DNA of 64,000 bases from Chrysomallon squamiferum (taxonomy: Eukaryota; Animalia; Mollusca), in the NCBI GenBank assembly GCA_012295275.1, contig CM022678.1, positions 14,694,001-14,758,000 on the forward strand. Direction: 5' to 3'. Shown one piece after another: positions 6,145 through 43,865 of the stretch. A program made the translations under genes and the position numbers. The stretch's first letter is position 1. Every line of letters begins with the position of its first letter. The notes under the pieces were generated by a model that was not told the origin of the DNA, did no database searches, and was given only the letters and a program-made list of their open reading frames with translations.

Positions 6145-6202
<58 letters not shown>

Positions 6203-8302
6203 CAACAACAATGATAAATAAATACATTTTCTATACATACGTCTACAGGGTTAAACTTGACATGATGTGTACTGTCAACTCCCCACGTAAAACTTCTTAC
6301 AGGTTCTGTTCTCTCCTCATCCCAGATATCAACTGATTCACCACTCGTTGCAAATACATTTTCTGACCAGTGGTGATCCATTGATTGAAAAACGGTCTGA
6401 AAATAAGTACAAATTAAAATTTAATTTTTAAAATTAAGATATGAAAATATTTTTTTTTAAAAGGAAATTAAAAATAAAATAAAAATGCTGACAGGATAAA
6501 ATAAAACTGTTTATTACAAACCTTGCCGAGTATTGTGTTCATTGGTTCATCAGCTACAGAACCATCTTCATCTATGCTCCACTGCTTTATAGTTTTATCT
6601 GTGCCACACTGAAAATAAAATAAAATAAGTAAGATTATTTTTAATATGGTTGACTTAATTTAAGGGATTAACGGCGTCAATGGGAGACCAGAGTTGTGAA
6701 ATACCGTATACACTTGTGTATAAGTCGAATTTTTGGGAGACTATATTAAGGTAATATTTTGGGGGTCGACTTATACATAGGTAATGCTTTTGTAGCTGTT
6801 GCTGAAGAGTCGCCATTTTGACTATTTTTTGCTACGGGATGCATCTAAAATAATCGCGGTCTTTCAGCTTTTCAAAAATATAATTTTATCATATAAAAAA
6901 TGTTGAAAAATTAAATAACAAAACCAAATGTGAATGTAAAACATGATATTCTTCCGTTTAATGACATAAAAATACATTTTAAAGCGAGAAAACCGTCAGT
7001 ACGGCGTTATGCCTTACGGCATCTTGCAATGATTTAGGCTATAGCTCATGTAATACATGCATTTATATTACTATGGTATGTTCGTGCAAGTTATGTTACA
7101 GTAGGCGTACAATGTAGGCCTTCATGGCACTGTCACACTGGTCTAAAAATAGTGACAGTGCCTGGAATCTACAGTCGACTTATACACAAGTAACACTAAA
7201 ATGATGCAATTTGTGGTCTTAAAATACACATCGACTTATACATAAGGTCGCCTTGTACACAAGTATATACGGTATGAATGTTTTAAATTAAACAATTTTA
7301 ATAATTTTAAATATATAATATAATCAGGAAATATCTTTAATATTAATATTAACAAGTAAAAACATGTTAATTATATACTAGTAATAAAATATCTTAAAAA
7401 AAGAAAACTAACTGAGAAAAAGTATTTTCCATCTTGATGTGCACAGAGTCCTTGAACAAAACCATCATGAGCTTGTATTGACTTCATGCAGGTACGTTTT
7501 GCTAAATTCCATAGACGAACCTAAGATAAATAGAATAATTTTAAAAAATAAAATAATAATAATAATAACCATGGAATAAAATACTGGGAAGTAGAAAAAA
7601 CAAGACTACATTTCTATCCAGTGAAAATTCAAACATGTTATTTACATTTAAAGTAATAGCACACTATATTATCTCTCTAATAAAGTAATCTGTTGAGTAT
7701 GTATTAGTTACATTAACATGTCTATCTCAATAATATAATTTGTTAAAACAGCTAACTAATATAAACATATTTTAAAATGCTATGTTCATCAGATTTTGTT
7801 TTGCTTGTATTAAAAAATATAAATTTTCCAACAGTTCTTTAAAGGTTTATTCTGAGAAATGATAAAAGGAACTTTTACATACCTCCCCATCACAAGCTCC
7901 TGACAGAAGGAATGACAGACTTGTGGGATGTTTACATAACCTGTGTACTCCATCTCTGTGACCATCTAATGAACCTAGAAATGGCTTGGCAAATACTCTT
8001 TCTAATTTGGTGAAATTCAAGGCACGGACATACTCTCTTGGTGCTTCAAATGGGTGAAGGCTTGGATCATAGTTCCTAGGAACTGAAACACAATTTGAAA
8101 TAATAATAATTTTTGGAAATATTAAACAGTTTATAAACAAATTACAGCTATTTAAACTATTCTAATTTCTACTATTCTTCTATGAATTATGATACGAAAC
8201 TTAGTCTAAGTCTTCCCAGATTCAGCAAGATCAGTAAATAATCGACAGATTCTGAGATTGAAAATTTATCACAAAACAATAACACGTAACATGTTGATGA
8301 TT

Positions 8303-8735: not shown

Positions 8736-9643
8736 GTTTATTATTGGCGTTTTATATTTAATCACGTTAAACTGTCGAAATCTAGCAAAAATAATTTTAT
8801 GGTGAATTATGACTTGATAGGCTAGATAAATATACCCACATGCACACACAATGTTCAAAAGACGCTGGTCTAGAGTCTAGCAGTTTGACATTACAGTTTA
8901 AATGATTATTGAAATCAGTTTTGAAATTTTCCTTGAATGATTTTGATGTTATTAGCGTGATGAAAAATGTATTATACTGAAATTATACTGGAAAACCTTT
9001 ATTACAATTATTTTCCAAAGATCTATTACAATTTACTGTATTATAAATTTTATATATTAATAAATTTAAAATAATACATAGATTAATTGATATTTAATTT
9101 ATATTTAAATGGGAGTTTCACGTAACATTAAATGTTTTCTTATTCATTTTACATGCTCTGTACATACTTCTGTAAATTAAAATTAAACAAGTACCTAAGC
9201 GTATAATCAAAACTGTTGTTAATCAACTTCTTTTGATAAGCATCATCTCCAGAAATTATAGATACAAAAATTGTTTCAAAATATTTTGTTTTACTACTGA
9301 TGTCATTAAAATATATACATAAATAAAAATTAAAACTGAAATTAAAATTAAATATAAAAAAGTCGTATTAGTTATGGTGTGCTTTTTAATAGTACATTGG
9401 CCCCAAATAATTAATGAACTGTATGATGGTAATAAATTTTATTTTTACTGTTTAAATAAAATAGGATAATTCCATTACATCAATGCTTATCCAACTATTA
9501 ATTTCTTTGCCTGTTAATTTGCCATTACAGGAAGTAAGAGCTGTCTAGTCATGGCGATCACTGAATGGTCAAACAATGAACTTCATTGTGAGATTCATTT
9601 GAAGGGAAGTAACTGTAAGATATTTGTTTTCACGGAAGACAAG
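8541..9643. promoter_or_regulatory. Divergent (head-to-head) promoter region of DCAF13 and ABT1
   Basis: Start codons 1.1 kb apart on opposite strands. GGAAG (ETS-like) motifs near 9530, 9605 and 9633, and a YY1-like AAGATGGC overlapping the ABT1 ATG (9641-9648). Confidence 0.55.
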
Positions 9644-11125
9644 ATGGCCTCGCTGGAAGAGAGTCCATCAAAACCAGTAAAATACAAAAAGAAAATTACC
9701 TCTGGCATTATTTATCTTAGTAGAATACCATCTTCAATGAATGTTAAGAAAATACGTCAAGTTTTTGGAGAATTTGGAGAAGTGGACAGACTATTTTTAC
9801 AACCTGATGGTAAGCAATTACTGAAAGTGACAATCACCGATTGAATCGGTGAATCACATCTTTGAATGTGAAATTAACATAACATTGTAGAATGTCTTTA
9901 ACATCACTCAGTTAGAAGTAAAAGTAATTAACAATAACAATATTAACTGTGCTGTGCATTCAGTTAAAAAGTATCCCGAACTGTGTACAAATTCCGGAAT
10001 AGCTGAGTCATGTAAATTGTTTTTTACTTTTTACCAAAGCTGTTATTTTAGTGTAAGATCTAACGGTTAGAGAAGTTTTATAACGTTATGCAGCAACTAC
10101 AAATAATAAAAATTAATAATAACAAAACAACAACAACAACAACAACAAAAAATAAAAAATAAATAATAAAAAAATAAAAATTATTAAAATTTTAAAAACA
10201 CAACCTATCATCACTTTAAAATGATATTTCTTTAGTCTTTTGAAGTTAGAGGTGTTAATAATTAGAATTTCCAAAGTTCAAACTGTTCAGTTACAATTCC
10301 ACTACATTTAACTTTTAAACATAAAGTATGTTAACACTATATAACATTGTCCTAATAAGGGTCAGTAAAGAGCTACAAATTCCATTGGGGTCGACAGTCA
10401 AAAATATTTAGGAACCAATGCTATAGCAACATGATTTTACAATACAGTCAGTGTCAAATAAACTGTCATGGTCTTGAATTACGACAAAAATGGTTAAATA
10501 CAATTAAAAACCATTTAATTTCAGAATTTAATAACATTAAAAAATTATTCATTGTGCTTTTTTCTTTGTTTTTATTAGGAAGGATATTCAATTATCTGAT
10601 AATAATGAAATTATGAATTTTCTATTTACAGACAAAAACTACAGTGCTAAAAAAGGCCGAACATTCTCAGAAGGGTGGATTGAATTCAGAGACAAAAGAA
10701 TTGCTAAAAGAATTGCTTTAATGTTAAATAACACCCAGATTGGAGGCAAGAAACGAAACAAATGGTATGATGAAATCTGGAACATTAAGTACCTGCCAAA
10801 ATTCAGATGGGCTCATTTAAATGAGAGACTTGCATATGAAAGAGCAGTTCATGAACAGAGAATGCGAACGGAGATCTCTCAGGCTAAACGTGAGGCAAAT
10901 TTCCACATAGAAAATATTAGCAAAAGTACAAAGTTAAATGAAATAGAAAAGCGAAAAAGGAAAACAGGTGAGACGCTGAAAGTGAGAAAAACTCACATAA
11001 AGTTAAGAGAGACAGAAGAGGAAATTATTTCTAAAAAGAGAAGAAAAGAGGAAAAACCATGTGCACTGACATCAGCCAATAATTCATCATTTTTGTCAAA
11101 ATTATTTACTGGTGGAAGTAAATAA
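9644..11125 (+). CDS. ABT1: Activator of basal transcription 1 (Esf2 ortholog), RRM protein, 219 aa
   Basis: Exons 9644-9809 and 10632-11125 (phase 1, GT-AG; 660 nt). Motifs SGIIYLSRIPSSM, FGEVDRLFLQP, FSEGWIEF, LNNTQIGGKK, IWNIKYLPKFRWAHLNERLAYE are characteristic of Esf2/ABT1. An upstream in-frame ATG at 9551 is possible but less likely. Confidence 0.94.
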
Positions 11126-13207: not shown

Positions 13208-13302
13208 TTGATAAAGTTTATTTTTGTTGCACAGACAGATTAACTAATCTCATAAAAAGTACTAAAAATGTTTATGCATAAATAAAAAAAAATTATGCCA
13301 GT
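13208..13302 (-). repeat. ~95-bp duplicated block with AATAAA, downstream of dve module B stop
   Basis: Near-identical to 16820-16913; TTTATT (AATAAA on minus) at 13217-13222. Confidence 0.85.
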
Positions 13303-13476: not shown

Positions 13477-16400
13477 TCAGTGAATCCAACTCTGGTTATC
13501 TACATATGTAGTCGACAGTATCTGCATGCTGCTTGATTCTATAGGTCTATGAATATTATGCACACTTGAGTCTAATTCACATCTCTCTTGTACATCACTT
13601 CGAATCTCTATCACAGACATTTCAGAACTCGAATCAGGATTTATCTGCCCTTGGCTGCTAGTGCAGGCTGGCTCTTCCTTTTTTTGTCGTCTTTCCTTCT
13701 GTTTTTCATTTTTCCACCACAGTTTGAGTCGAGCTGGAGTCACTGGTGGTCTTGCATTTCGTATATGTCCTTTGTTTAGTTCGCTGCAGTAGAAGCGAAG
13801 TTTTTCCAGTGACGGATGTTTGCACTTGGCATACCAGCTCTTAAGAAGAGGAACTTCATGTTGTGGGTGAAATGTCAATCGAGTGTCCTTTGGAGTCCCC
13901 TTATGACTTATTGATGGGAAATCTGGCAAGAAAATAAAACAAGAAATCAAATTATTACATAAAACTTTATATTTATATTAAACGATGTTATAAGGAATTA
14001 AAATTAAGAGAAAAATTTGAAAATAAGCTCATGATTTTGCCCGGAGGCCAACATTTTCCTTTTTAGGATGTCGTTCAGTTTAGAAACATATAACTAACTC
14101 CGATAGAATTTTTTTTTGAAAGGTTACTATCTCTTCATATACTACCACACACTTCTAAACAATTTTATGAATGCAGTATTGCAGAAATTCTCAAAACCAT
14201 ATAATCATACAAATTCAATGTTTTTCTACCACTCTGTATGTTTTTGAATTTAAAAAAAAACAAAAAACAGAATGGTTACCTAGAGCTTGCAGTTTGTACT
14301 GTTTGTACCATTCTCCAAATTCCTTACATTTCTCCATACTAAGCTTGTTGACGTATTTTCCATTGGCAATGTTTGAAATCATCGACTGGCAAAGGGGAGA
14401 TAACTTTGCCAGTGTTGGTTGATTTAATTCCTTCAAAAGCCCAAGAGTGGCACACCGAACAGCATGGTCATCCCATATAGTTGTCCAGTCAACATGCTTC
14501 AAACTGAAAAAAAAAAAATTAAATGTATATTTCAATTAAATTTTTTATATCTTAAAAAAATGAAGAATAATGGCTTTTGTTTCATGAGCTTACCTATAGT
14601 TTCATCAAAAGCTTCATCTATTATAAACATAGGCTACAAATCAAATATAAATAAATGTACAGAGCAAATGAAAACAGCAAAAACGTGTTGATCTGATTAA
14701 TATACACACATACACACATATACATATTAATATCAATAATCTATTGATGTACTGATATCATTAACATGCAAGTGTACCGTATCAATAACTATTAATGTAG
14801 TTATATCATTAACTTTTTATACTGACATCAAGAACTTATTAATATATATATATCATAACTTACTGCTATATGGATAATATTAATATTGTTCTACTAGTTA
14901 TTCTGTTAGATTATTAGTCCATTTGTTTACTAACTGTATTGATACTTTTAGTTTACTATTGTACTGAGGCAGTTTATTTACAAAAAATTATAGTATCACT
15001 TTTTCAGTTGAGCTGTATACACACTCCACCCTATCCCTACCCCTCAGAAAAGAAGAAGGAGTTTATCTTATTAACTGAACTGATTAAGTTAGATATTAAC
15101 AGTTCTAATTGATTGTATAGATAGTTAGTTTATTGTTTTTGTTGCTACTGCCAGTTTACTGCTTTTCTGATATCAATAACTTATTAAAGTAAATATATCA
15201 TTTATTTACTGCTCTACTGACATCATTAATATTGTTAGTCTGGCTGTTCTGATTCTATTAGCTTACTAGTTGTATTGCTACAGTTTTCTTAATAATACAA
15301 GTACTACTGATATATTAGCATTTTGGTTGTTTTGGTACTTAAAGCTTATTATATTATTCATCATTAATTATGACATAACTAAATGAAAAAATACAGTATT
15401 TAATAAGATTTTCTTAAAAAGATTTATTTCTTAAGGAGATGTAATAATTTATCATTCTTTAATATACTGCACATTCACTGTACTGTTCCTTTTTTCTCAA
15501 CTGGTGCTTAATATTATTTTAATTATTATTATTACTATTAATGTTTCAAAAAACATCGTTAATGCTACTATACAATCTACTGTCACACTGTCCACTCATT
15601 CTGAGCCTCATAAAGAGATTAGATGTAATTCCCAACAGCTCAGAAAGTCAAAGGAAAATCTGCTGTAGATTAGACAATATTAGACGGGAGCCAGTGATGA
15701 TTACATTGGATCAGAAGCTTGATTAAAAACTAATATCGGATTAGGTGAAACTTTTGCAAAATAAATCAGAAACAGGATTGATCCTTCAAGTAAACTGATC
15801 AATTTACCCATCACCATGGCAACAATCTTACATTGCATATCCAAAGCATTATCCAAATCAGCTTTCAACACAAAGCAAAAAAAAAAAAGATGCACTTGCC
15901 TCTACAGTCACTACAGATCTATTTATATATGAATATATAAGCAGAAGCTTTTCTGTACAAGTCTGATAAAGAAATACTGAACCAGTGATGTAAAAGAACA
16001 GAAATAATTATAAAGGTTTAATAATATCCTATCATTATTTAAAATGATTATTTTCATTATATTTATTGTATTGTTCAGATCTCTTGTTCATGTACATTCT
16101 TCAGATAGCTGGGGTTTTTTAAAACCTATGATGGTTTTTAAAGTTAGCTTCAACTAGAACTTACTGTATTTTCTTAATGAAGATATATTTTGTGAATTAC
16201 AAAAACATCTAGAAAAGATACTTTTATGATATGTTAGTGTGGAATCTTGTAATTAAATTAAATACAGGGCATAGTTTGTCATTTTTGTGTACGTAAAATG
16301 AGAAGTATAATCTATTGACAGTGATATCTCTATTCGTTTCCTTTTTTTTACTTTCAGACAATGGTTATGTTTTAAGGTAATAATGTGTTTCTTTTATATA

Positions 16401-19400
16401 TTATATAGTGGTTGTACAGAGCAAACAGTACCTCCTCTTTCATCAGTATGTTTTTTCCTATACCAGCACAACCAGCCTATGCTACAACATCAACAAATTT
16501 CTTCAAAATTAAAAATAAATAAAAAGGAAATCCAATAAAACCTAATGTTGGCAGAAATTTATTTTGAAATGTTGTAAACAATTCATCTTGTTCATGAATG
16601 TGTCTACTTTATTACTAGTTAATTCTTGAAATGACAATATTTAGTGTTATGGTCTAACTATTCATAGCACTTTTATTTCATGTCAGTTTATTAAACTAAA
16701 TGAAAACACAAACACATTAAAGTGATATATTGGTCAGATCATGTCTGACATTTAATATCAATGCAGAAAACAGAAGACAAAATTGTAATAATTTAATTAA
16801 AGTACGTAACTAATGTGGTTTGATAAAGTTTATTTTTGTTGCACAGACAGATTAACTAATCCCATACAAGTACTAAAAATGTTTATGCATAAATATAAAA
16901 AAATTATGCCAGTCATAAATATATATGCGTAGGTATATATAATAATTATACACAAAAAAAGTATAATATGTATAATTTATATAAATGTAAATATTATGGG
17001 TAAGCTTTAAATTACAAAATGTATCCAGCACAGAAACATACAATAGCAAGTTGTACAACTATTTTGCACATTCAGATTAAAAGAAGGCAGGCATATATGG
17101 ACTTTTTAATAATTTTCTAATTTCACTTTATAATATCACATGTTTGTATTAAACAAAAGATGCATACATTACATGACGAAAAACATTTATTTATTTTTAA
17201 TATAACAAAATTTTATTTTTGTTTTTATTTGAAATAATAAAATATACAGATACAGCTTCAAAAGTATTGAATTTTGATATACACTGTAAGAATGTATTAA
17301 TCATTACGTAGAAAATTAGATATTCACTGAAAACAGTTAACATATAATTAATATGCATGTCAGATTCTGGCTTCATGTCCAGATTTTTAAATATGACTAG
17401 ATTGCTCAAACTTAAATTGGAAACAAAATTATAATTATTAAAAATTATAAATAATTTTTAAAGAAAAACATTTTTTTCTTGTACCTTTCCTAATTTTACT
17501 ATGAGAAAAGTGTTAAGATTTGACTGATTTGTATAAGAAAATACAGATCCTTCTAACAAGTTGAATCTATAATCTTTGATTTAGATTCAGCTGTATTTGC
17601 ACCACAAAACCACAACATAAACAATATAAAATGTTTATAATTTCTTTAGTCAGCTGATGTTATTAACATGAGACAAAAATTACAAGTCCTAACAAAATAT
17701 TGCCATTTGTTACTAGGTAATACAGTAAACAAAAAAATAATCAAAATCAAAATCAAAAATATAAACAGAGAATGAAACACACAAACAGAGATTGCTGGTA
17801 AACTGTAAGCAATGATTTAAAAAGAATAACAAATTTAACAACATTCGATAATAATAAATTTTGCCATAGATGTGTTTAAAATTTAAAAATAATCAAAATT
17901 ATGCAAATCATCAAAACAATATAGAGATATCCAACATCAAAAATCATTTAATATTATTCTTAATTATAGCTATTTATTATATTTCACAGTAAGCAATGTA
18001 AGTCTCTTAGTATCTAATTTAGATTATATAGTAATTATATTTTTAAAGATGTCGCTGGGATTGATCTAGTAATAAATCATGATTCATCTGAATTTTTCAT
18101 ATCTGAGTATAAAATGTTTAGTACATTTATTCAAGCTGCCTTTAGATACAAGTGTATTATTAAATAAACAACTTAAAAATTTAGTAAATTGTTTAATTAT
18201 AGAAATGTTTATAATCTGCTAGAGTTAATTCTAAATCAAACTAATATAAACTTCAAGTATACATTTATGTAAACAGAAGAAATACTAGGTTTCATCAATT
18301 ACTGAGAAAATAATATAGACACTGAAGATTCTGAGTCAGTTTCACTAGTAAAAAATAAAACAAAAATCCTAGGTGGGTCTAAATTAAATTAATCTTTTAT
18401 TAATAGGATTAATAATTTGTTGTCTGAATTCAAATTAAATTCCAGATGCAATAAATCCTAAAAGAAACCAAATTAAAATTAACTGAAATAAAAAGAAGAA
18501 ACAAAGATTAAACTATTTCAGATTTTACAAATGTTTTTTTTTTATAATACTGAAAAAGTTTATGTTCAAATTTTTAAACTTTGTTTCCTCCATTCCATGT
18601 GTTTCTCATTTTAACAAATTAGGTTACTTCTAAATATATAAAACAATACATCACATGATTATAACACTGAGATGCACTCACTTCAAACAATTTCTTTCTT
18701 GAACATTACTTCTGTATTAAATAATATTACTATGCAATTATTACTTTTAAAAAACTATTATTTATAGGTATTATGGCAGTTTTAATCTCATCTAGTAGAA
18801 TTTTGGTTTCAAACTATTAATGAAATAAAATAAATAAATATTAATAAAAAGTATAATAATATTAACAAAATAATAATAATAATAGTAATGAATGCTGAAA
18901 GGATTTAAAAAGTACAATAACAACAACAAACAAAAACAAACATGACCAGAATGTCTAAGAATATTTTATAAATAACAATCCAAAACTCAGCAGATTGCTG
19001 AAATATCTTGTAACGAAAAGATTTAAAATGTGACAGGAAAAACAGCACTAGTATTTGTACAAGAAAACAAAAATCCCAATTGTAAATAAAAATAAAATAA
19101 AGAACACTGTTGGCAACAAAATTGCACTTGTAGTGTCTTCCATACCATTTGAAAAAAGAAGAAAAGTCAACTTTATTTTATTTATACACATTTTTGAAAA
19201 TTTATCTGATCTGTTTTATCTAGGGAATATAGGGAAAAAAAATCAGAATCAAAAATATAATATGTATACAAATTCTACCCTAACCCTCAAAAAAGAAGAA
19301 GTTAATAAAATGCAAAAAATAATCTTCCTAACAACAATATAAAAATAAAAATATAAAAGTATCTGTTTTGGCATTGTGTGTGTATGTGTGTGTGTTTGCA

Positions 19401-22400
19401 GGTGGATGTATGTTTGTGGATGTATACAGTTGTCACATACAAATTCAGTTATACTGTAGGAAGAAAACCAGGTGGAAGCCACATCAGAATTTAATATTCA
19501 TATTAATCTAATAAGAACAAATAATGAAACCAACATTTCTTTTGGAAGAATAGCAGTTAATAACATTCATAAAAAATAACAACAGTATTACGAGCTTGTG
19601 TCAAGTCGCATGCGTTTCACTTTTGCTCTATGGTTTTTAAACCACAATTGCACATTTTTAGATTCCAACCTTGGAAACTTCTGTCTGTACTCTGATCTGT
19701 TGAGTTCATCACAGAATTTGTCAATCATGTACGCTGAAGGGTGAGTGTCCTCCATGAACCATTTCTCCAGTTTAGGTATTTCTGTCAGGGGGTCAATAAA
19801 AACTCGAGTACGTCTCTTACGGGGTTCATGATGTTTGTGTGTGTTGCCATGAACTGGTTCGTGGACAGAGTTAGAGTGAGGTGAGTAGAAGCGTGTGTTC
19901 ATTGGGTAGTAAGTCATAAGTGGTGGATTCAGTTGAGGGATGTGTAAAGGCTGTGCCATTTGGGCAAGAGACATAGCAGCCATGCTGGCCGCAGCTGACA
20001 TACTGGTGGAGGACATATCACACCGTGAAGACATTATGGCATGGTCAATATTTTCCTTCTGAACTAATGCTGAGCGGTCATCATCATCAGACTCTGACTC
20101 GGACACATCCTCACTAGAATCATCATAAAACAATCTCCTGTCCTGACTCTCCTCTTCTTTCTGGCAGTCTGTGCTGTGTACACTGCTATCAGACACAGTT
20201 CTCTCTTCATCCTTTTTGTTCTTTTCTGATTTCATATTATCTTCAGGTGATTTTTCACCTTCTTCAACAGTAGTCTCTTCCATTGGCTCTTCTTGTTTTA
20301 TCTCTAAATCACCAGGATTAGTTGGCTTTTTATTATCATTTTCAAAACCATTAGACAAAGTCACATGTTTATTTTCATCACAACAATTCTGTTTAGTATC
20401 CAACACTTTTTCCTCTAACAGATCTTTTGATTTATTCATGGATAAGTCACATGGTTGATCATTTCCTGTTTCCTGCTCTGCCAACTGCTGATGATAAGGG
20501 AATGGAATGACATAAACAGCATTTTTATTTGGTAAATATGGATAATGTCCAGAAAGCAAACTGGTTGCATTTGATTCAGAATTGTCTTCATTTTCAAAAG
20601 AATCATCAACAGCTTTTGATGCACGTCTTTGTGCAGCTCTTGCATTTTTAAACCAATAAATAATATTTGTTAGGTCCAGAGGTCGCCGACCTTTTCGAGA
20701 ATCAAGCTGGTTTAGTTCATTCATATACCTGATCATTTGTTCTCTGGATGGATGCTGATTTTCTTGAAACCACTTGTGAAGTCGGGGAATTTCATGTTCT
20801 GGATCAAATGATGTTCTCACCCTGGTTCGACTTGCCATGAAATAGGGTTGTGGAGGTGTTGGCTGTGCATCTTTCAAATCAGGCGATGCCTGTGGACTGT
20901 TTTCTTTAGAGAGTTCACAGTCTTTCACATCAGGCTCTGGTGTTTTTTCTCTTAGAATCAAATCAGAACTGTTCTTACAAAGTTGTCCTTTCAGCTGCTC
21001 CTTGTACCATTTATCAAAAGCAGACGTCAGATCTTCGGGAATCTTAACAGAATGATCACCTTTACTTATAGATGAAAGCAGACCCTGAAATGTAAGAGAT
21101 TACATCTCAACTTGAAAACTGAAACTACTTTATAAAATAAGATCATTTTCGTACATTATTTTTTTTCTAAAATTTTAATTTGATTAACTTTTTAAAATGT
21201 ATACTGAAATAACTGCATATAAAACAGAAATTAAAACAGGTATAAACAATGATAATAACAATTAAGAACAAGAAGCATTATTAACTAATAACAAAACAAT
21301 ATATAGATAGAAGTCTTACCTGGTTGATTGGGCAGCCTGTTTGGTTGAGAAGACTATGTGATTGAGAAAGAAGAAGCTGCAATAATTTCTCCTTGACTTC
21401 TTCGGCAGAACTAGGTTTTGGATGGCTGCAAGAGCGAAAGTTCACTACTAAAACAAGGCACGTTTAAAATCCGTTTTTAAATTATTTGCTTGTTCTTCCG
21501 GTAAGCATGCACAATATCTTGCCGCCTTTTCAATAAATTTCATACTTTGCTTTTGAGTTCAGAAGCGTCTAACAAAATTTATTTACTTGTGAATAATTAT
21601 TAACATTTGCTTTTAAAGACAAATAAAATTTATTGAAATGCTGCAAATAAAATAATACATTTTCGGTGTGCGAAATTAATATTGAAAAGTTTAATAGTTA
21701 AATATAAATAAGCATGTATTAGAAGAAGATATTTGGGTGGGTTTCTTTTTTAATTCATAAAGTTATGGAATTATGTCTAGGTAAACCAAACATTAACAAA
21801 ATAAACCAACTGATTACAGTTTCACACAAATACCAGAAGCAATTTTATTAATAAGTAGAAAGAATATTTAAAGAAGTTACTAAAATTATATATTAAAAAG
21901 TGTTCCAGATAAATCTGGAAATCTATTACAAAATACACAAAGGGAATTGTCAACAGTAAATTGCTAATAATAAATTGCTGCACTGCCACAGTTCATATGT
22001 GACTAATATAATGACATGATAAATTATTAAATTAATGGTGAACACTGCTAATATTCTTAAATAAAAATCAAAAACAAGAAGCAGAAAAAACAATTTTGGT
22101 ATCATGTATTTATAGAAATGTTTATAGTGAACAGTTACAGTTTCAAACAGGTAATAAAAACAGAGAAGCCAACTGTTTGTACTTGTAATGAAGATGTGTT
22201 TTATTATTTGATAAACACTTTATTTCATCACAAATTACAATTTAGACATTTGACAGTTTTTTATTTACACAGAAACTGGCAGTCTTATCTTCAGTTTTAT
22301 AATTTCTATACTAGTTGTTCAAGAACTAGTTTTTTAACAGAAGTACTCTATGACAATTTCACCATTTCCAAACCAGTATAAACTATTTGCATTAAACATG

Positions 22401-25400
22401 AGCACTATCTCAAAAAAAGTATTTCAGAAAATATTTTGCAGACAGAAAACAGAATAATAATGGATCTTACTCATGTGAAACTGGGTCATTCAAATTGTGA
22501 AATATGGTAATTCGTCCTCAAATGCAATGTTTGTCTTTCTGGATGCAGACATCTGAATTTTTTATTTTGTGATCCCATTCTTTTAGTAACAATTTTATCT
22601 GCCTCCAAACTTTTAAATAGTTTCTTGTTAATATTTACTTTTATTTAATTAGAATTTACATTATGTAAACTTTTTTTAATGTGGATGGGCAGCTGTGTAT
22701 TTGTTTCAGTATAAATCAAACTAAAAATGTTAAGTCAATATTTAAATTAATTTGTTATTGCTAGGACCAGTAAATCCATATTACATAGCTGTGGCAATAG
22801 TGTTTGTCTGTTTTACTGTTGCAATAATTTATTTCAAACAAAGGAAAAACTGAGATTAAAAACAAAACTGTTATATTTTTTCAATCTCTTCAACTGGTTA
22901 TATAAAACTTTTCAGACATTCATCTTACCTTGCTATTCGAATCCTAAGAGTTGCGACATTGGTGAGTTCTGAAAGAATTTCTTCCACAGTGGCTTGTGCA
23001 TTGTTTGTGATAGCATCAAATGTCAGTGGTTTCCAGTTTTTTATCTGTATTGCACCTGCAAAAATATTTTTAATTAATAAAACCATGATCTCTTCAAACT
23101 CTTTAAATTATAAGTAATCAATTCTCTGAATACATAATTGCATGCTTATATTTGCTTTTCATTACTTTAACCACAAATTCAAAAACTGTATGCTGTTGTA
23201 TTGCATTTAAAAACATATCATTAACACAGATCAAAATGTTTAGAAACAAATTTGTAACTAATTAACAGAAATACTACCTTTTGCAGCTATTGCATCAGCT
23301 GAGTTGTAGCCAAGTTTAACAAGAGCAGAATGTACAAGATCACTGAGCAGGGTGCTGCTGGGGAGAATAGCGTAACTGTCCAACTCCACAGCACTGGGCG
23401 CACACACTGCACTCGTCACACTGTCAAACGAAGGTGTTCCTGATATCTGTTCAACAATACAGTGAATTGGTAGAGACTTCGCTGAACCTAAAATTGAAAA
23501 AATACAAAAATTTATAAATGAATATAGAAAACAATATGTCTTTGTGAAACTGTCAAAGATAACTGTTTAGAATAATGACAGAACTTCTGTTTCATTTTCA
23601 AAATTTGGTAATCATTTGATTTCAATTTAAAAATTTTAAAATAAATGCATCATAAAAATAATATGTATAAAGTGAAAAAAAAAAGATTATAAAGAATTAT
23701 AATGATAGGTCACAATTAAGTTAAATTTGTAATGCAAACAGTGTATGCCATAAACAAAAACCATGGTAACTGAAGAGCTATAAGTTCTAGTTTGACAGTT
23801 TGTTTGATAATTTGTTCAGAAGGGAAAAAAATTGTTTCTTCCGTGATATTAGTAAATATATTTCATATTGTGGAACTTAAAGGAAACACACATATGATTA
23901 TAAACTAATAAATCTTACTGCATCTTATTAATTTATTCTGAAGTTAGAACTGCTTAAAAAGTATTGATCTTTTAAACTAGTTTTTAGAACAATTCTCCTA
24001 TAGAATAATCCAGCCTGTGTTTATTTCCACTGTGATTAATCAGCAAGGTTCATTAGAGATATTTCTGTGGGTAACTTACTGAGTCTAATCACTTTATCTG
24101 CAGACTTAATTAAATCTTTAACCCAGGTGAAACAAAATAAGCAGAAAAGGCACAGCAATTACAATAAACAGGAATCCACATTCAACATTCAGGTTTTTTT
24201 AAAATCAAATATTTCTTAGGTGTTCTGAAATATGCTAATTTTTATATAGAAATGTTTGAGGGGTAACAGTATTTATTAATTAATTAACTTAACACTTGCA
24301 AGGTGTTCACACTGAGAGAATGATAAAGATGTAACTCTACAGAGAACAGAGAGAATCAGGCAAACTGTATGATTTTAGAGTCTTTTATTAGATTTTGTCA
24401 TGAAAATGCAATGCAATACAAACATGTTTAGTAAGGTTTCAAAACAAGAAGAAAAAAAAAGAAAGAAAGAAAGCTAATACTTATTCAAATGTCTTCTTAG
24501 TAATAAAGATAAAATAAATATGAAGGGAAAAAGAGAAAAAAGGTTAATGCTCTAAAAATCAAAGTCTGAGAAAATGATTGCTGAAGATCCGCTGTGGTTA
24601 ATAGGATTTTCTTTTTGAGAAGTTTTTGGTTTTGGAAATTACCTGGCTAATCCACCAAAGCTGGTTCGTAATGAAGCGTGTGACAAAGCCGCACACTAAT
24701 TCCTCAATTATTACATTTCATCCGCCACAGCTTCTAAATTTGTGAGGTCTTATCCTTCCTAATTCCACGGATTTATTTCTCATTTCACAAGCTTCAAAAA
24801 CTCCCCAAAACCATTGCTAAACCAATATTTATTTTAGATACTGTTCCTTAGCTTGGATTAGTCTACCTATCAAACTCAGAATGTTCTGATGACTCTTTGA
24901 AGATTAGACCATGGACTTTCATGTCTCTATCTGAATTTCTAACATTCCTTTTTAAATTATTGTAAGAAATTGAAACACTACTTTACAGCCAGCATAGCTG
25001 CACGATCAGTTAGCTAAATCCAAAGTCAAATGAACGTCACACAATGTGTATTTGCAGTGTAGCACATTGAGACTCAAGTCTTGCAGCTCCATTCCCACCC
25101 TTTCCGTGGTGGAATCACACAAATGTTAGGAATTATTATTTTTTTCCACTAATTTATTTTTTTAACAGAATAGGTGTATGAATAACTAAGATTTTACATT
25201 TCCTAACTTAGCAAATATAAAAGAAATACTAGGCTTTGTATGTGTAAAATTCCTGTTTCAGTTAAATGGTATTTAATGCAAATAAAAATCTTGTCATAAA
25301 TGCATATCAATTATTTAATTATGCAATCTTGCATCTTCTTTTCAGTTGATATTTATCAAAAATATTTACCAAATCTTCTCATGCATTTTTGTTTAACTAA

Positions 25401-39500: not shown

Positions 39501-42500
39501 ATGTTTGAGTTTTTATGCACAAATCCAAAATCAATAAAAATTGACCTAATGTATTGTCAGAATTATCTTATTAGTTGCCTGTATGCGAAGTGGCTACATT
39601 TGTGGAGTGACTCACACATTATAAGTTACTTTTATGAGAAATTTCATTTGCAGTACTTTTATGTTGATAAATGTATCAGTAAAAACAAAATTTATATTGG
39701 AAATGTTTCAAGAAAGTTCCTGTTTTCATCACTGATATAGTTCATAAAGGGCAGGTAAGCCACAAATTGTTTACTCTGATAGTTACTTGTAATATTTAAA
39801 AATTAATTTTTCACTTTAATAAAGTTGTTTTGATATGTAAATTTGACTAATTTCAACTTAACTGAAACAGAAGAAAACATTAATCTAGATGATTCTAAGT
39901 GATAAGTCATATCTTATATATGTTGTCAGATACCACAACCCAGCAGTTAAAATAAACCCCACTTAAACAGAAAAAATATGTATTAAAATGATTAAAATAG
40001 ATTGAAATAAAGTTCTATCTTCTGCTAAAACAAAGTTATTTAAGTGTGTTGAAATCTTACCTCCTATTGTTGTTATATTCTGTTCAGGATCCTTCATAAT
40101 GGTTTCCACACTGTGACTGCGACTTGGTGAAGGTCTGTGGATTCCTGGAATACTTCTGTCCAATATAAGACCACCACCAGGTCCAACTAAATGTAGAGTG
40201 TGGCCATGAGTTCTTACTGCAGACATATGACTTTCTTCTGAATGATAGCTTTGTGGTTTGTGAGACTGCAATAAACACGAAAAATATGTATTAATAATCT
40301 CTTTAACCACATCCAGAATCACAGTGTAAGTATGTTAATCATATAAAACATTTTTAACTGACCTAAAAGGTATTCTGTTTGATTAAAAATGTTTATACAT
40401 ATATTATTAATTATTTTTTTTTAAAAAGGGTTTAATCTAAATGTGTGTGTGTGTGTGTGTGTCTAAAAAAATATTAAACAAAACAGATAAGGCATAATAT
40501 TAAAATAATTAGAATAAAATGTTCTGAATAATATTTCTAATCCTTGATATCTAGTCTATATCAACTATGTTTGTTACATAAAGCATTCCTGTAGACGAAC
40601 ATGTGCAGATTAGTCACTTTCTCAGAGGTGTTTCATGTCAAGATTGTGAATGAATAAATCAGTAAATTAAACGTTCACATTTATTATGATTTAAATACCA
40701 CTAGTAAATACAACTATATATAAACAAAAGAAATTATCTGTTAATAACCATTTTACTTATTTTTACTTTTTTTTTAATATTACTGTTATTAGTTTAACTT
40801 TGAGGCAATTGTTTAATATCTGAAGTGCCTAAAATCAGCAGTTAATTATTAAAGAAGTAACTTTGAACAATCAAAGTCAATATAGTTTGTTCCAAAAAGT
40901 TATATTCTGATAAATCTACCATTACCTCTTTTTGACTGTGGTTATTCTTTTCCTTTAACACGAGACCAGGGTATAGAAATTATTTCATTAGTTTTTTAAA
41001 CCCCTACCAATTTAAACTGTTTTCTTTTTTCTTTAACTATTCTTAGAAATAGTACAACAAATGCCATTTTTAAGGCTGAGAAATAAAAAATAGCAATGTG
41101 TGTGTGTGTGTGTTTGTGTTTATCCTGCAATGTAGTGGCAAGATATGATGACTATATAAAAACTAGCATGGATCAAAAATATAACTTTTAATTTACTGAT
41201 TTATTCTTTCACAATCTTGACGTGAAACACCTTTGGTCTGAGAAAATGACAATCTATTGAATAATATTGTAATACATAAACATTAGTATGGCCAGTGAAA
41301 TAAGATATATCAACAATAATCTGAAACTTGATAACAAATCCCAGAATACCTAGTAACTCTTATCTGTTCTATTACTACTCTTGCCATAAACATATATATA
41401 TATTTTTTTTAATGGGCAAAAATGTAGAACAAAACAAAGTTCTGATATTTATCTGTGTTAATTTAAAAGTACAGAACAAAACAAATGTTACAGAACTATA
41501 AAATAAAAATAGATATGAAATGTAAATGATTTACACACTTTCTTGACAAAATCTACTTTTTTATTGTAACAAGTCATCTAATCCAAAATATAACATAAAT
41601 AAATAAAAACAACTCTGTTCCTATAACGAGCTAAAAGTAAAAGCAGTCCAAATAAATGCTCAGTACAGAGGTAACATGATACACGTCCTAACACAAGAAT
41701 ACCCTGGATTATAGCACACGTTGTGAAGCATGAAGCAAAGTGGATTTTCTGATTATCTGAATGCCAGGTTTGCTTGCAAGGAACAATTCCATTTAGACAA
41801 AAATGATTAACAGATGTACTACACCAGTGGGAAGGCACATCTGGTCAAGAGATCAGGTTTAAGCCCAGAAAGTGATTAGCACCAGAAATAGACAAAGTAA
41901 AATTGGATATGTTAGGTAAGATTGAGAATTAAATGTTGAAGGTTTTGTGACTTTAGCTTAACTTTCAAACAGAGAGTTTTAATAGTCAAAACAGAATTTT
42001 AGATATACAAGCCAGTTTTCCCAATAAAATAATATATGTTTTGGTTACATTATGAAATTTATTATAATCACATATATTCAAAACTTTAAATCTTTAACTC
42101 TTAATCTTTCAGACATTTATAAAAGTGGTACTGAATTGTGCCATATACTACCTAATTAACTAACACATCATGATCTTCTTTCTCTGCCTACATACTCAAA
42201 GTTTAACTTTGTTTCCTTTTTTTCATTTCAGTTTTTATTTTTACTGCATTTTATAATGTCAATACTTTTAAAGTTTTAAATCAGTGTTGTTACTAAAATC
42301 CTTATTTTCAAAAAAAAGAATACACATTCGGTTGCTGAAAATTATAAGATACAGTATGTAATAAACACATCTGTTTTCACAGTATACCTTTTTTATTTTC
42401 TCATTTATTTTTTTTTATGATTTTTTCAGTGTTATTATTATTACTTTTTAAATATGAGATATGTTCAGTTATTTGCTAAAAAAAACCCACCAAAAACCCG

Positions 42501-43865
42501 ACAACAACGGTTCACTGCATTCTATTTAAAATATTTGTATTAGCTATATGAACAAGCAGAAAATCTATATACGTAATTCAAGAAGTCAAGCTTGGTGTAA
42601 ACAATTTGTAAGTAATATTTTTTAGATATCTACATAATACAGCATTTCACAGACATTAATACTTTAAATAATCCTATTTCTGAAGAGAAATAAAAATTAC
42701 TTTTAAAATATTAAAAAAAATATATAATGATCATTTGCTATTTAAAAAAAAAAGAAGTCATGAATATTAAAAAAAAGAATAATAATAATGCTATAAATAA
42801 TATAAATATCCTAAAATTTGTTTTTCTAAGCAGATCTAAACTATATAACACTAAATATATTGATAACTTACACTCAGTTTAATGAGATATTATAAACCAT
42901 GCATGTTTTATATCTATTTACAGCAATTTGGAATACTGACTAATTCATCATTTTTATTTTCTGTTATTCTAGTTTAAATATACATTTGAAGATCAAATTA
43001 AGTACATAACTATAGCAAAATGATGCAAATAAGTTGTATGAAATAAACATTTAAGATATATACATCTAGACAAAACAGGTTATTTTCTTTTGGAAGATTA
43101 TTTTTTATTATAATTATTATTATGTATGTTTATTGTTTTTATTATTATCATCATTACATTCTTTTTTTTTTTTTTTTTTTTTTTTGACTTTAACTTTGTA
43201 ATTTGTTGATATAGTTTTAATTTTCATTGAATAATGAATAAAATAATTTTTAATGCATAAAAATATGTTTTTGTACTAAGAAAATCTGTTGAATATATAT
43301 TATTATATATGAAACAATTCGTGATAGTTAACTTCTCACAAATTTGTGATTATTTTGACTTTGTTGCGATTTAAATGTGGCTAAATAAAAGGATTACAAA
43401 TACTTACGTTAATCTTCTGTGACACATAACACATTAATTACGAATTTGGCATGTAGTTTAACTTAAAATTTGGTTGTTCCTTCTGTCCAATGTTGAACGT
43501 CATTTTAATGCTTAGTTAATGTAGTTAGCCTGTAAATTACAATGTACCCAATACTTCCTTTCCTCTTAATACAGTAGACTGATGCGATACGTTTCTTATG
43601 TGCTGGAATGATTCCATAATTATGCTAATACCTATAACTTTAACAGACTCGTAGCCTAGTTTAGTAATTAGGTTTAACTTTGGAACTGTAGGTGACAGCA
43701 AATATTGAAATACCAAATCAAAATTAATAACACTTAACAGTCAATATCCAAACTTCACGAGTTTATCAAAATATAACTCACGTGCGATTCTAAGTTCACT
43801 GCGGTTGGGGTGTTAGCGGCTACCCATGCCTCTGCAAAAGTCTCCATAGCTGCATGGAAGTCCAT
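13477..43865 (-). CDS. dve: dve/Compass isoform B (predicted): ULD/CMP + SATB-like CUTL + one homeodomain, 431 aa
   Basis: Shared exons 43865-43782, 40265-40061, 23487-23278, 23055-22929, then B-specific 14503-14280 and 13922-13477. Total 1296 nt, open frame. The phase-2 donor at 22929 joins the phase-2 acceptor at 14503 (AG+T=Ser). B exon 1: LKHVDWTTIWDDHAVRCATLGLLKELNQPTLAKLSPLCQSMISNIANGKYVNKLSMEKCKEFGEWYKQYK. B exon 2 homeodomain: TRLTFHPQHEVPLLKSWY...RLKLWWKNEKQKERR. Confidence 0.78.
14730..15320. repeat. Degenerate ~25-bp minisatellite-like array
   Basis: Recurring variants of TACTGA(T/C)ATCA(A/T)TAAC; block ~15165-15280 resembles ~14820-14950. Confidence 0.5.
16820..16913 (-). repeat. 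~95-bp duplicated block with AATAAA, downstream of dve module A stop
   Basis: Near-identical to 13208-13302; TTTATT (AATAAA on minus) at 16829-16834. Confidence 0.85.
19588..43865 (-). CDS. dve: dve/Compass isoform A: Defective proventriculus-type homeobox protein (ULD/CMP + CUTL + two K50 homeodomains), 742 aa
   Basis: Exons 43865-43782 (MDFHAAMETFAEAWVAANT..), 40265-40061, 23487-23278 (KSLPIHCIVEQ..LDSYAIL..ALVKLGY), 23055-22929 (IQIKNWKPL..ELTNVATLRI), 21425-21320 (EVKEKLLQLLLSQSHSLLNQTGCPI), 21084-19588. Total 2229 nt, all GT-AG, phases consistent. HD1 RTRVRTSFDPEHEIPRLHKWF..IYWFKNARAAQRR and HD2 RKRRTRVFIDPLTEIPKLEKWF..QLWFKNHRAKVKR match recalled Dve/DVE-1. Confidence 0.92.
32923..32998. 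repeat. (TG)n microsatellite
   Basis: Directly visible; explains the VC-repeat ORFs at 32897-33119. Confidence 0.95.
34755..35340. mobile_element. Tc2/pogo-like MITE, copy 2, in the large dve intron
   Basis: TA|CCGTATATACTTGTGTA ... TACACAAGTATATACGG|TA, colinear with 6704-7272; carries an extra ~16-bp internal repeat around GTGCAAGTTA (~35135-35160). Confidence 0.9.

Follow-up and report, generated by a model that had tools for sequence, protein, structure and literature searches.

A gastropod dve/Compass gene with two exclusive 3' modules, one of which carries a SATB-like CUTL domain

The closest described counterparts of the locus reported here are the Cmp/Cmpl genes of ambulacrarians, the SATB genes of vertebrates and the COMPASS family. 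According to the available sections of Cavalieri et al. 2013 (PMC3784565), sea urchins and Saccoglossus use exons e5-6, which encode CMP with two homeodomains, in mutual exclusion with exons e7-9, which encode CMPl with one, and the CMP module lies upstream of the CMPl module. The same sections describe CMPl as a protein of 396 aa that binds the sns5 insulator, which CMP does not, and whose homeodomain alone suffices for binding. They also report that the residues of the ULD tetramer differ in ambulacrarians, present a tree built on homeodomains only, state that CMPl is absent from chordates and protostomes, and treat the locus as a character of Ambulacraria.

In the accessible parts of three further accounts, the CUTL domain is listed for SATB only and SATB is derived from Compass (PMC4901127, PMC10515288, PMC2211742); a fourth, likewise available in part, dates the shuffle of CUT and ULD to the vertebrate stem (PMC11788884). 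Phe48 is common to SATB and ONECUT (PMC10515288, accessible text), which agrees with the published model of Compass-Onecut shuffling that the available sections of PMC3784565 cite. For molluscs, the available portions of Paps et al. 2015 (PMC5322547) catalogue oyster Cmp1 and Cmp2, which have adjacent model numbers.

The window analysed here is a stretch of 64,000 nucleotides from Chrysomallon squamiferum (assembly GCA_012295275.1, contig CM022678.1, positions 14,694,001 to 14,758,000). Its DNA is AT-rich (GC 24-33%), and it carries on the minus strand a dve/Compass gene whose closest named relative is that of the gastropod Gigantopelta aegis (81%). Four coding exons, together encoding 208 residues with the ULD at the end, are shared by the products of this gene. 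The first (43782..43865, minus strand, as are all exons of the gene; start codon at 43865) matches the N-terminus of Gigantopelta protein P0003 at 96% in tblastn, with the frame open to the ULD, and the second (40061..40265) is placed by tblastn and by RNA contigs of runs X2 and X4 that reach its 3' end from the ULD exon. The ULD, or COMPASS domain, is divided between two exons. The upstream one (23278..23487; Pfam ULD, E 8.7e-17) is joined to the next in all four RNA runs and has a phase 1 donor at a Gly equivalent to SATB2 Gly116, while the downstream one (22929..23055), of 127 nt, runs from phase 1 to phase 2, where its end splits a Ser codon. The first ~20 residues, encoded by the 43782-43865 exon, form an unannotated motif that hardly varies among molluscs, annelids and chelicerates and is retained in part by starfish.

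Beyond the shared exons lie two modules, A and, downstream of it, B. Module A consists of two exons and includes a stop of its own: 21320..21425, supported by RNA joints in three of four runs and by a CUTL profile match, encodes the first half of a divergent Dve-type CUTL, and 19588..21084, an open reading frame with two Pfam homeodomain matches, encodes the second CUTL half, homeodomains 1 and 2 and the stop. This last exon is 81% identical to Gigantopelta P0003, and its RNA cover extends into the 3' UTR. The first exon of module B (14280..14503) holds a complete SATB-like CUTL, identified by Pfam and by its SATB1 match, and has a phase 2 acceptor with polypyrimidine-AG and a phase 1 GT donor. 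The last (13477..13922), supported by its open reading frame and by tblastn matches of 45-61% to B proteins of Lingula and Patella, encodes a single atypical homeodomain and a stop. The splice between these two exons is predicted from the frame, the GT-AG ends and homologues. Isoform A, of CMP/Dve type, has 742 aa and isoform B, of CMPl type, has 431 aa, with one terminal stop each. AAT AAA signals follow both modules and carry no evidential weight, being common by chance in AT-rich DNA.

RNA contigs came from four runs (X1-X4), all of one study. The joint from the ULD to module A (22929-21425) occurs in X1, X2 and X3 and the joint from the ULD to module B (22929-14503) in X1, X2 and X4, three of four runs in each case and both with GT-AG ends; a single contig of 1713 nt spans both ULD exons and the CUTL-B exon, its short side measuring 125 bases. 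Because the same ULD exon is joined to A or to B in RNA, the two are mutually exclusive 3' modules of one dve/Compass gene, not two genes, and the donor of the second ULD exon (22929) is the switch point between them. The RNA joints and the open frames rule out module B as a separate gene or a pseudogene. Isoform choice would be a contest between a near acceptor with polyadenylation after A and a far acceptor 8.4 kb on. A 95-base stretch 3' of the B stop (13208-13302) has a 96% identical copy between A and B (16820-16913), which may account for mismatched letters near 16862-16867 in one RNA contig.

Two further genes were noted beside the Compass gene. A gene containing an RRM (9518-11125, plus strand; weak Pfam RRM matches) lies tail to tail with the Compass gene and presumably resembles ABT1/ESF2. 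Head to head with it are the exons of a WD40 gene (6145-8161, minus strand; weak Pfam WD40 match), which we take to resemble DCAF13/SOF1.

The CUTL-B exon matches the Pfam CUTL profile with E 1.2e-17. Its domain aligns without gaps to the CUTL of human SATB1 (2L1P) at 32 of 61 positions (52% identity, E 2.6e-15), in agreement with the likeness of about one half that a preliminary description of this DNA had given. Ungapped identities to four SATB-type proteins are 32-34 of 61; 10,000 shuffles against each of these four gave means of 3.6-3.8 and a maximum of 13 of 61. Across ten SATB rows, the window B CUTL is 42-56% identical and the window A CUTL 25-31%, and the mean identity of SATB CUTLs is 50.5% to protostome B and 53.9% to ambulacrarian B, compared with 24.0% to protostome A and 28.5% to ambulacrarian A. 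Profiles give the same order: the SATB CUTL profile scores 160 on protostome B and 144 on ambulacrarian B, against 44 and 63 on the corresponding A sets, and SATB rows reach 74-102 bits on the B profile against 29-46 on the A profile. Thirteen columns, one of them a one-residue indel, unite SATB with B only, and one column unites it with A only.

The A segment is still a true CUTL homologue, matching the SATB CUTL by profile at a probability of 96-98% (protostome A 96%), and it falls below the Pfam cut-off in A-only proteins. It groups with arthropod Dve in the tree, as its earlier likening to insect Dve had led one to expect. The residue after the first conserved CUTL Trp (14478-14473, minus strand) is Ser or Thr in all ten SATB rows and in many B rows; window CUTL-B has Asp there, and A-type CUTLs do not have that Trp. 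In SATB1 this Ser is, we assume, the PKC site S185.

The CUTL tree comprised 70 rows and 59 columns (24 protostome A, 8 ambulacrarian A, 24 protostome B, 4 ambulacrarian B and 10 SATB-type), leaving out partial CUTLs, near duplicates, P0105 and P0255; among its SATB-type rows, the lamprey protein was identified by name and the other nine were typed by sequence and Pfam domains. A tree of the CUTL plus the first homeodomain comprised 43 rows and 130 columns (14 of the 24 protostome A rows, all 8 ambulacrarian A, 17 of the 24 protostome B and all 4 ambulacrarian B). In the homeodomain-backbone tree, five of the ten SATB rows were added with the SATB homeodomain left blank. These trees were built without an outgroup, so the likeness of B and SATB could partly be a retained ancestral state with A evolving fast, and the tool warns of long branches meeting.

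The CUTL tree splits all A sequences from B plus SATB (100/98), and with the homeodomain backbone the A clade excludes SATB in 300 of 300 bootstraps. The CUTL evidence on where SATB belongs comprises 59 columns only, and the placement of SATB in the trees is probable, not proven. We consider it quite probable that the ULD-CUTL of SATB derived from the B form. In the wider reading, CMPl very likely has its orthologue in module B, and the N-terminal half of SATB1/2 likely came from the ULD-CUTL form of that module.

The B homeodomain has a WWKNE helix 3, Trp48 and a ten-residue loop insertion. In a tree of 38 homeodomains, that of window B forms one clade (98/94), apart from CMP and SATB, with the B homeodomains of Ptychodera and Diadema, which stand in for P. 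lividus CMPl. The SATB homeodomain sits on a very long branch, has no loop insertion, and is 12-15% identical to B and 21-25% to A. It is so unlike that of B that the B homeodomain was not kept in recognisable form, and the homeodomain tree and the identities rule out a SATB homeodomain taken from B. The view in the preliminary description that vertebrates kept B and gained CUT domains stands for the CUTL, which sides with B, but not for the homeodomain.

The loop insertion of window B is ten residues long, as in the window A homeodomains, not eleven as in CMPl, so that window B, though very likely a CMPl orthologue, does not fit the published diagnosis of CMPl. It is one residue longer in Ptychodera, Trichonephila and Nymphon and two longer in Diadema. 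Searched against the PDB, the B homeodomain exon had weak NK2-type matches only (best E 0.055). The fused models P0164, P0169 and P0249 of Ptychodera and crinoids contain, after the second A homeodomain and before CUTL-B, a third stretch that resembles a degenerate homeodomain; no such stretch was seen in the window.

Human SATB2 splice variants (c.344_346+1dup, c.473+1, c.474-2 and c.598-2; available text of PMC11918880 and PMC5548934) place introns at Gly116 (phase 1), at codon 158 (phase 2) and after Gln199 (phase 0). The positions c.346+1, c.473+1/c.474-2 and c.598-2 correspond to intron positions of the window gene. The SATB2 exon c.347-473 measures 127 nt, with the same phases as the second ULD exon of the window, and the spacing from Gly to Ser is the same in the window as in SATB. 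When residues are counted back from the CPLSQ motif in eight SATB-type proteins, codon 158 falls on the last residue of the ULD, Ser or Cys, in seven and residue 116 is Gly in seven, the eighth being offset. For SATB2, the intron between ULD and CUTL lies at the same phase-2 Ser, the position that the preliminary description had singled out for comparison; since A and B have this intron in common, it makes no choice between them for SATB.

The CUTL of module A is split by a phase-0 intron (between 21425-21320 and 21084 onward) that is absent from window B, as had been noted from the sequence. Because SATB2 (c.598-2) and other B copies have this intron, its absence from window B is a local loss rather than a SATB-like state; two fragments of other B copies end there and six begin there. 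Its presence in SATB2, in A and in other B copies rules it out as a character of B and SATB.

A phase-1 intron just after the CUTL is present in window B and absent from window A. It is implied in three B fragments (P0208, P0201 and P0241), whose reading leaves the full-length match there, and in SATB, whose genomic-type fragments enter unrelated sequence after the same Gly in 10 of 11 cases; the SATB break comes one residue earlier than in window B. Among ULD-less A-type proteins, a single frame covers the end of the CUTL and the two homeodomains in 61 of 82, some of them from transcripts. The post-CUTL intron of SATB2 lies, we presume, at c.700 in phase 1.

One alternative derives the SATB CUTL from module A or from a single-module chordate gene, with the likeness to B a shared ancestral state and A evolving fast in invertebrates. 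A grouping of SATB with ambulacrarian A has a log-likelihood 9.6 lower on the CUTL alone and is not rejected (p=0.11), and ambulacrarian A is nearer to SATB than protostome A in identity and profiles. The SATB homeodomain, as given above, is nearer to A than to B, amphioxus Compass is reported with two A-like homeodomains, and no amphioxus B was found in our searches. Such a derivation would, however, require protostome and ambulacrarian A to have twice gained the same indel and twice lost the same Trp, Cys and Gly. With the homeodomain backbone the grouping is rejected (p=0.017), it occurs in 0 of 300 bootstraps, and the post-CUTL intron found in B and SATB is absent from window A. We regard a source in A as improbable.

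SATB may instead be a third lineage, either a separate bilaterian ULD-CUTL gene that is sister to B and survives only in vertebrates or a chimera of A and B CUTLs, which we also consider unlikely. The maximum-likelihood topology is A, SATB and all invertebrate B in both data sets: invertebrate B forms one group excluding SATB at 99/99 on the CUTL and 95/96 with the homeodomain backbone, and an invertebrate B clade without SATB recurs in 281 of 300 bootstraps. Yet trees with SATB nested in B are worse by only 1.3-3.3 log-likelihood units (p=0.22-0.44). SATB with ambulacrarian B, the species-tree expectation, is found in 1 of 300 bootstraps and is not rejected on the CUTL (p=0.22) or with the homeodomain backbone (p=0.43), and SATB with protostome B gives p=0.44 with that backbone. 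The long A branch attaches unstably among the SATB rows, which form one clade in 70 of 300 bootstraps, and a third gene must have been lost in every sampled invertebrate lineage. The idea of B as a retained SATB ancestor, put forward in the preliminary description, is borne out insofar as the SATB CUTL sides with B; SATB is not shown to be nested within B, and the best trees put it just outside invertebrate B. We retain the B form as the probable source of the SATB ULD-CUTL.

The trees give the duplication of the CUTL-homeodomain block a firm date. With CUTL and homeodomain combined, A and B split across protostomes and ambulacrarians at 100/99 and a protostome-only duplication is rejected (p=5e-6), which upholds the earlier proposal that the duplication predates the protostome/deuterostome split, with ambulacrarians as the deuterostomes. 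A recent duplication, under which A and B would group as a lineage-specific pair, is ruled out by the AU test on the CUTL set, which rejects a grouping of window A with window B (p=7e-51), and by the lack of DNA-level similarity between the modules beyond chance. With high confidence, module B can be taken as orthologous to sea-urchin CMPl and older than the protostome-ambulacrarian split. A separate origin of B in protostomes and ambulacrarians, or a recent one in molluscs, with CMPl specific to ambulacrarians, is the published claim (available text of PMC3784565) and agrees with a loop insertion that varies by our own count (10 in spiralian B, 11 in Ptychodera, 12 in Diadema) and with a protostome A+B grouping that is not rejected on the CUTL alone (p=0.09), but it is largely refuted and highly improbable in view of both rejections and the lack of DNA-level similarity just given, a single clade of protostome and ambulacrarian B homeodomains (98/94), the 11-residue insertion that Trichonephila and Nymphon B also have, and the same module order, A then B.

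Module B is widespread among invertebrates. A phmmer scan gave 72 matches, of which 22 were looked up and 18 named; its clusters hide members, making it weak for absence. B occurs in the bivalves Potamilus, Mizuhopecten, Mactra and Mercenaria, the gastropods Patella, Nucella and Babylonia, the leech Helobdella, the brachiopod Lingula, and, among chelicerates, the spiders Trichonephila and Parasteatoda, the mite Blomia and Nymphon (two proteins). It also occurs in the ambulacrarians Ptychodera, Anneissia and Diadema. A loss of B from insects and nematodes, as implied by the preliminary description, would not extend to chelicerates, which retain it. One lamprey SATB, and no insect, nematode, amphioxus or tunicate protein, stood among the 18 named of the 72 matches. 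A search with a deuterostome profile returned 11 proteins, the named ones all from echinoderms and none from amphioxus. No amphioxus or tunicate B having been found, the chordate link is missing. A word-based CUTL-B search found two proteins among 29 candidates and no SATB, and having missed SATB it is too insensitive for claims of absence; matches in the ESM Atlas, all of them HTH look-alikes from phages and bacteria below 0.9, provide no evidence.

Gene models of Potamilus, Mizuhopecten, Nucella, Helobdella and Trichonephila run from the ULD straight into CUTL-B. In Patella, Mercenaria, Mactra and Diadema the A and B models are adjacent by accession or lie on contigs of equal length, and in Ptychodera and two crinoids they are fused, with A first; genome annotations often divide this gene in two or merge its modules. 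Extra or incomplete B copies, some of which may be annotation artefacts, are the tandem pair of CUTL-B and homeodomain units in Nymphon (P0163, P0182), a divergent CUTL-only protein of Parasteatoda (P0212) and a repeated half CUTL in Mactra (P0176). The mollusc B homeodomain is already catalogued, as a second gene: that of oyster Cmp2 (CGI_10015220; available portions of PMC5322547) is B-type, and a pearl-oyster pair is alike. The accessible text of PMC1779571, PMC6118893 and bioRxiv 2021.09.29.462340 held nothing further on B, and no paper that connects protostome B with CMPl, or the CUTL of B with SATB, turned up in a literature search that reached few subscription journals.

The protein chosen for structure prediction was P0170, a B-type homologue rather than the window's own product, with an alignment of 30 rows. 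Its model has a mean pLDDT of 73.8, with ~90 over the CUTL and homeodomain, compared with 38.6 for a single-sequence fold; at a pTM of 0.41 the orientation of the domains is not predicted. In Foldseek, all nine matches of the model with E <0.001 are the ULD or CUTL of SATB1, followed by the bipartite domains of HNF1, POU and ONECUT. B likely works through ULD oligomerisation and a bipartite CUTL-homeodomain head that binds DNA. Oligomerisation of B is something we only infer, because the ULD tetramer residues differ in ambulacrarians. As in SATB1, the ULD would mediate oligomerisation of both isoforms, which would be set apart by their DNA-binding heads, with B reading AT-rich DNA through its CUTL and a homeodomain of different helix-3 sequence. 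Like CMPl, B would act at chromatin boundaries; a boundary function may tentatively be seen as common to B and SATB.

As the trees show, the history began with tandem duplication of the CUTL-homeodomain block within the gene, before protostomes and ambulacrarians separated. Stem vertebrates would have lost A and kept the ULD with CUTL-B, and the B homeodomain exon would have been replaced by a CUT-CUT-homeodomain block from another CUT-class gene. SATB would then be a ULD plus a B-type CUTL, with CUT-CUT-homeodomain likely grafted at the intron after the CUTL, the phase-1 intron found in B and SATB. It is conceivable, though we would not yet favour it, that the protostome-deuterostome ancestor had a two-isoform Compass gene whose B product was already a ULD-CUTL boundary protein, from which SATB1/2 arose by the exchange of the homeodomain exon for CUT-CUT-homeodomain.

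If this history is true, molluscs, annelids, brachiopods, chelicerates and ambulacrarians retain the true invertebrate counterpart of SATB, which has gone unnoticed. The fly protein Dve and the worm protein DVE-1, which serve as proxies for SATB, have the other paralogue of the CUTL and would stand for the other isoform. The published view of Cmp/Cmpl as an Ambulacraria-only character is contradicted, the origin moving to the protostome-deuterostome ancestor, and the accepted but vague model of SATB arising from Compass by shuffling is sharpened by naming the donor isoform of the ULD-CUTL and a candidate graft intron. Since CMPl binds an insulator and SATB1/2 organise chromatin loops, a pre-vertebrate role can be tested in spiders, annelids and molluscs.

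Compared with the known systems, the window gene is most fully matched by sea-urchin Cmp/Cmpl. Both are single genes with a shared N-terminus that includes the Compass/ULD domain and with exclusive modules of two and one homeodomains, the two-exon, two-homeodomain module lying upstream. They are also alike in the size of the one-homeodomain protein (396 aa in sea urchin, 431 aa in the window) and of the shared part (233 and 208 aa). They differ in the coding exons of the B module (three in sea-urchin CMPl, two in window B, which lost the mid-CUTL intron), and in the loop insertion (eleven residues and ten). The available sections of PMC3784565 do not treat the CUTL, and their link to SATB is the Compass domain only.

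With SATB1/SATB2, window B shares the order of ULD and CUTL, three intron positions, the 127-nt ULD exon and the predicted ULD-CUTL folds. It is not a SATB family member. No Pfam CUT match was found in the B or A exons, and an isoform of 431 aa has no room for CUT domains. SATB has Phe48, a one-residue insertion between helices I and II and no long loop, whereas window B has Trp48 and the ten-residue loop; unlike SATB, its homeodomain is of Compass type and its ULD is shared with a Dve-type isoform.

Isoform A resembles the COMPASS family (Drosophila Dve, C. elegans DVE-1, amphioxus Compass) in its ULD and two homeodomains with ten-residue insertions, and shows all the features of the CMP/Dve type, including the lack of a CUT domain. 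A second module is not described for Dve, DVE-1 or amphioxus Compass, and the segment after the ULD in window A is a divergent CUTL, a domain that the accessible text of reviews does not list for COMPASS proteins. Oyster Cmp2 is catalogued from its homeodomain alone and is not linked, in the available portions of PMC5322547, to CMPl, alternative splicing or SATB. The architecture of the locus is already known; what is new is its wider range, which now includes a gastropod.
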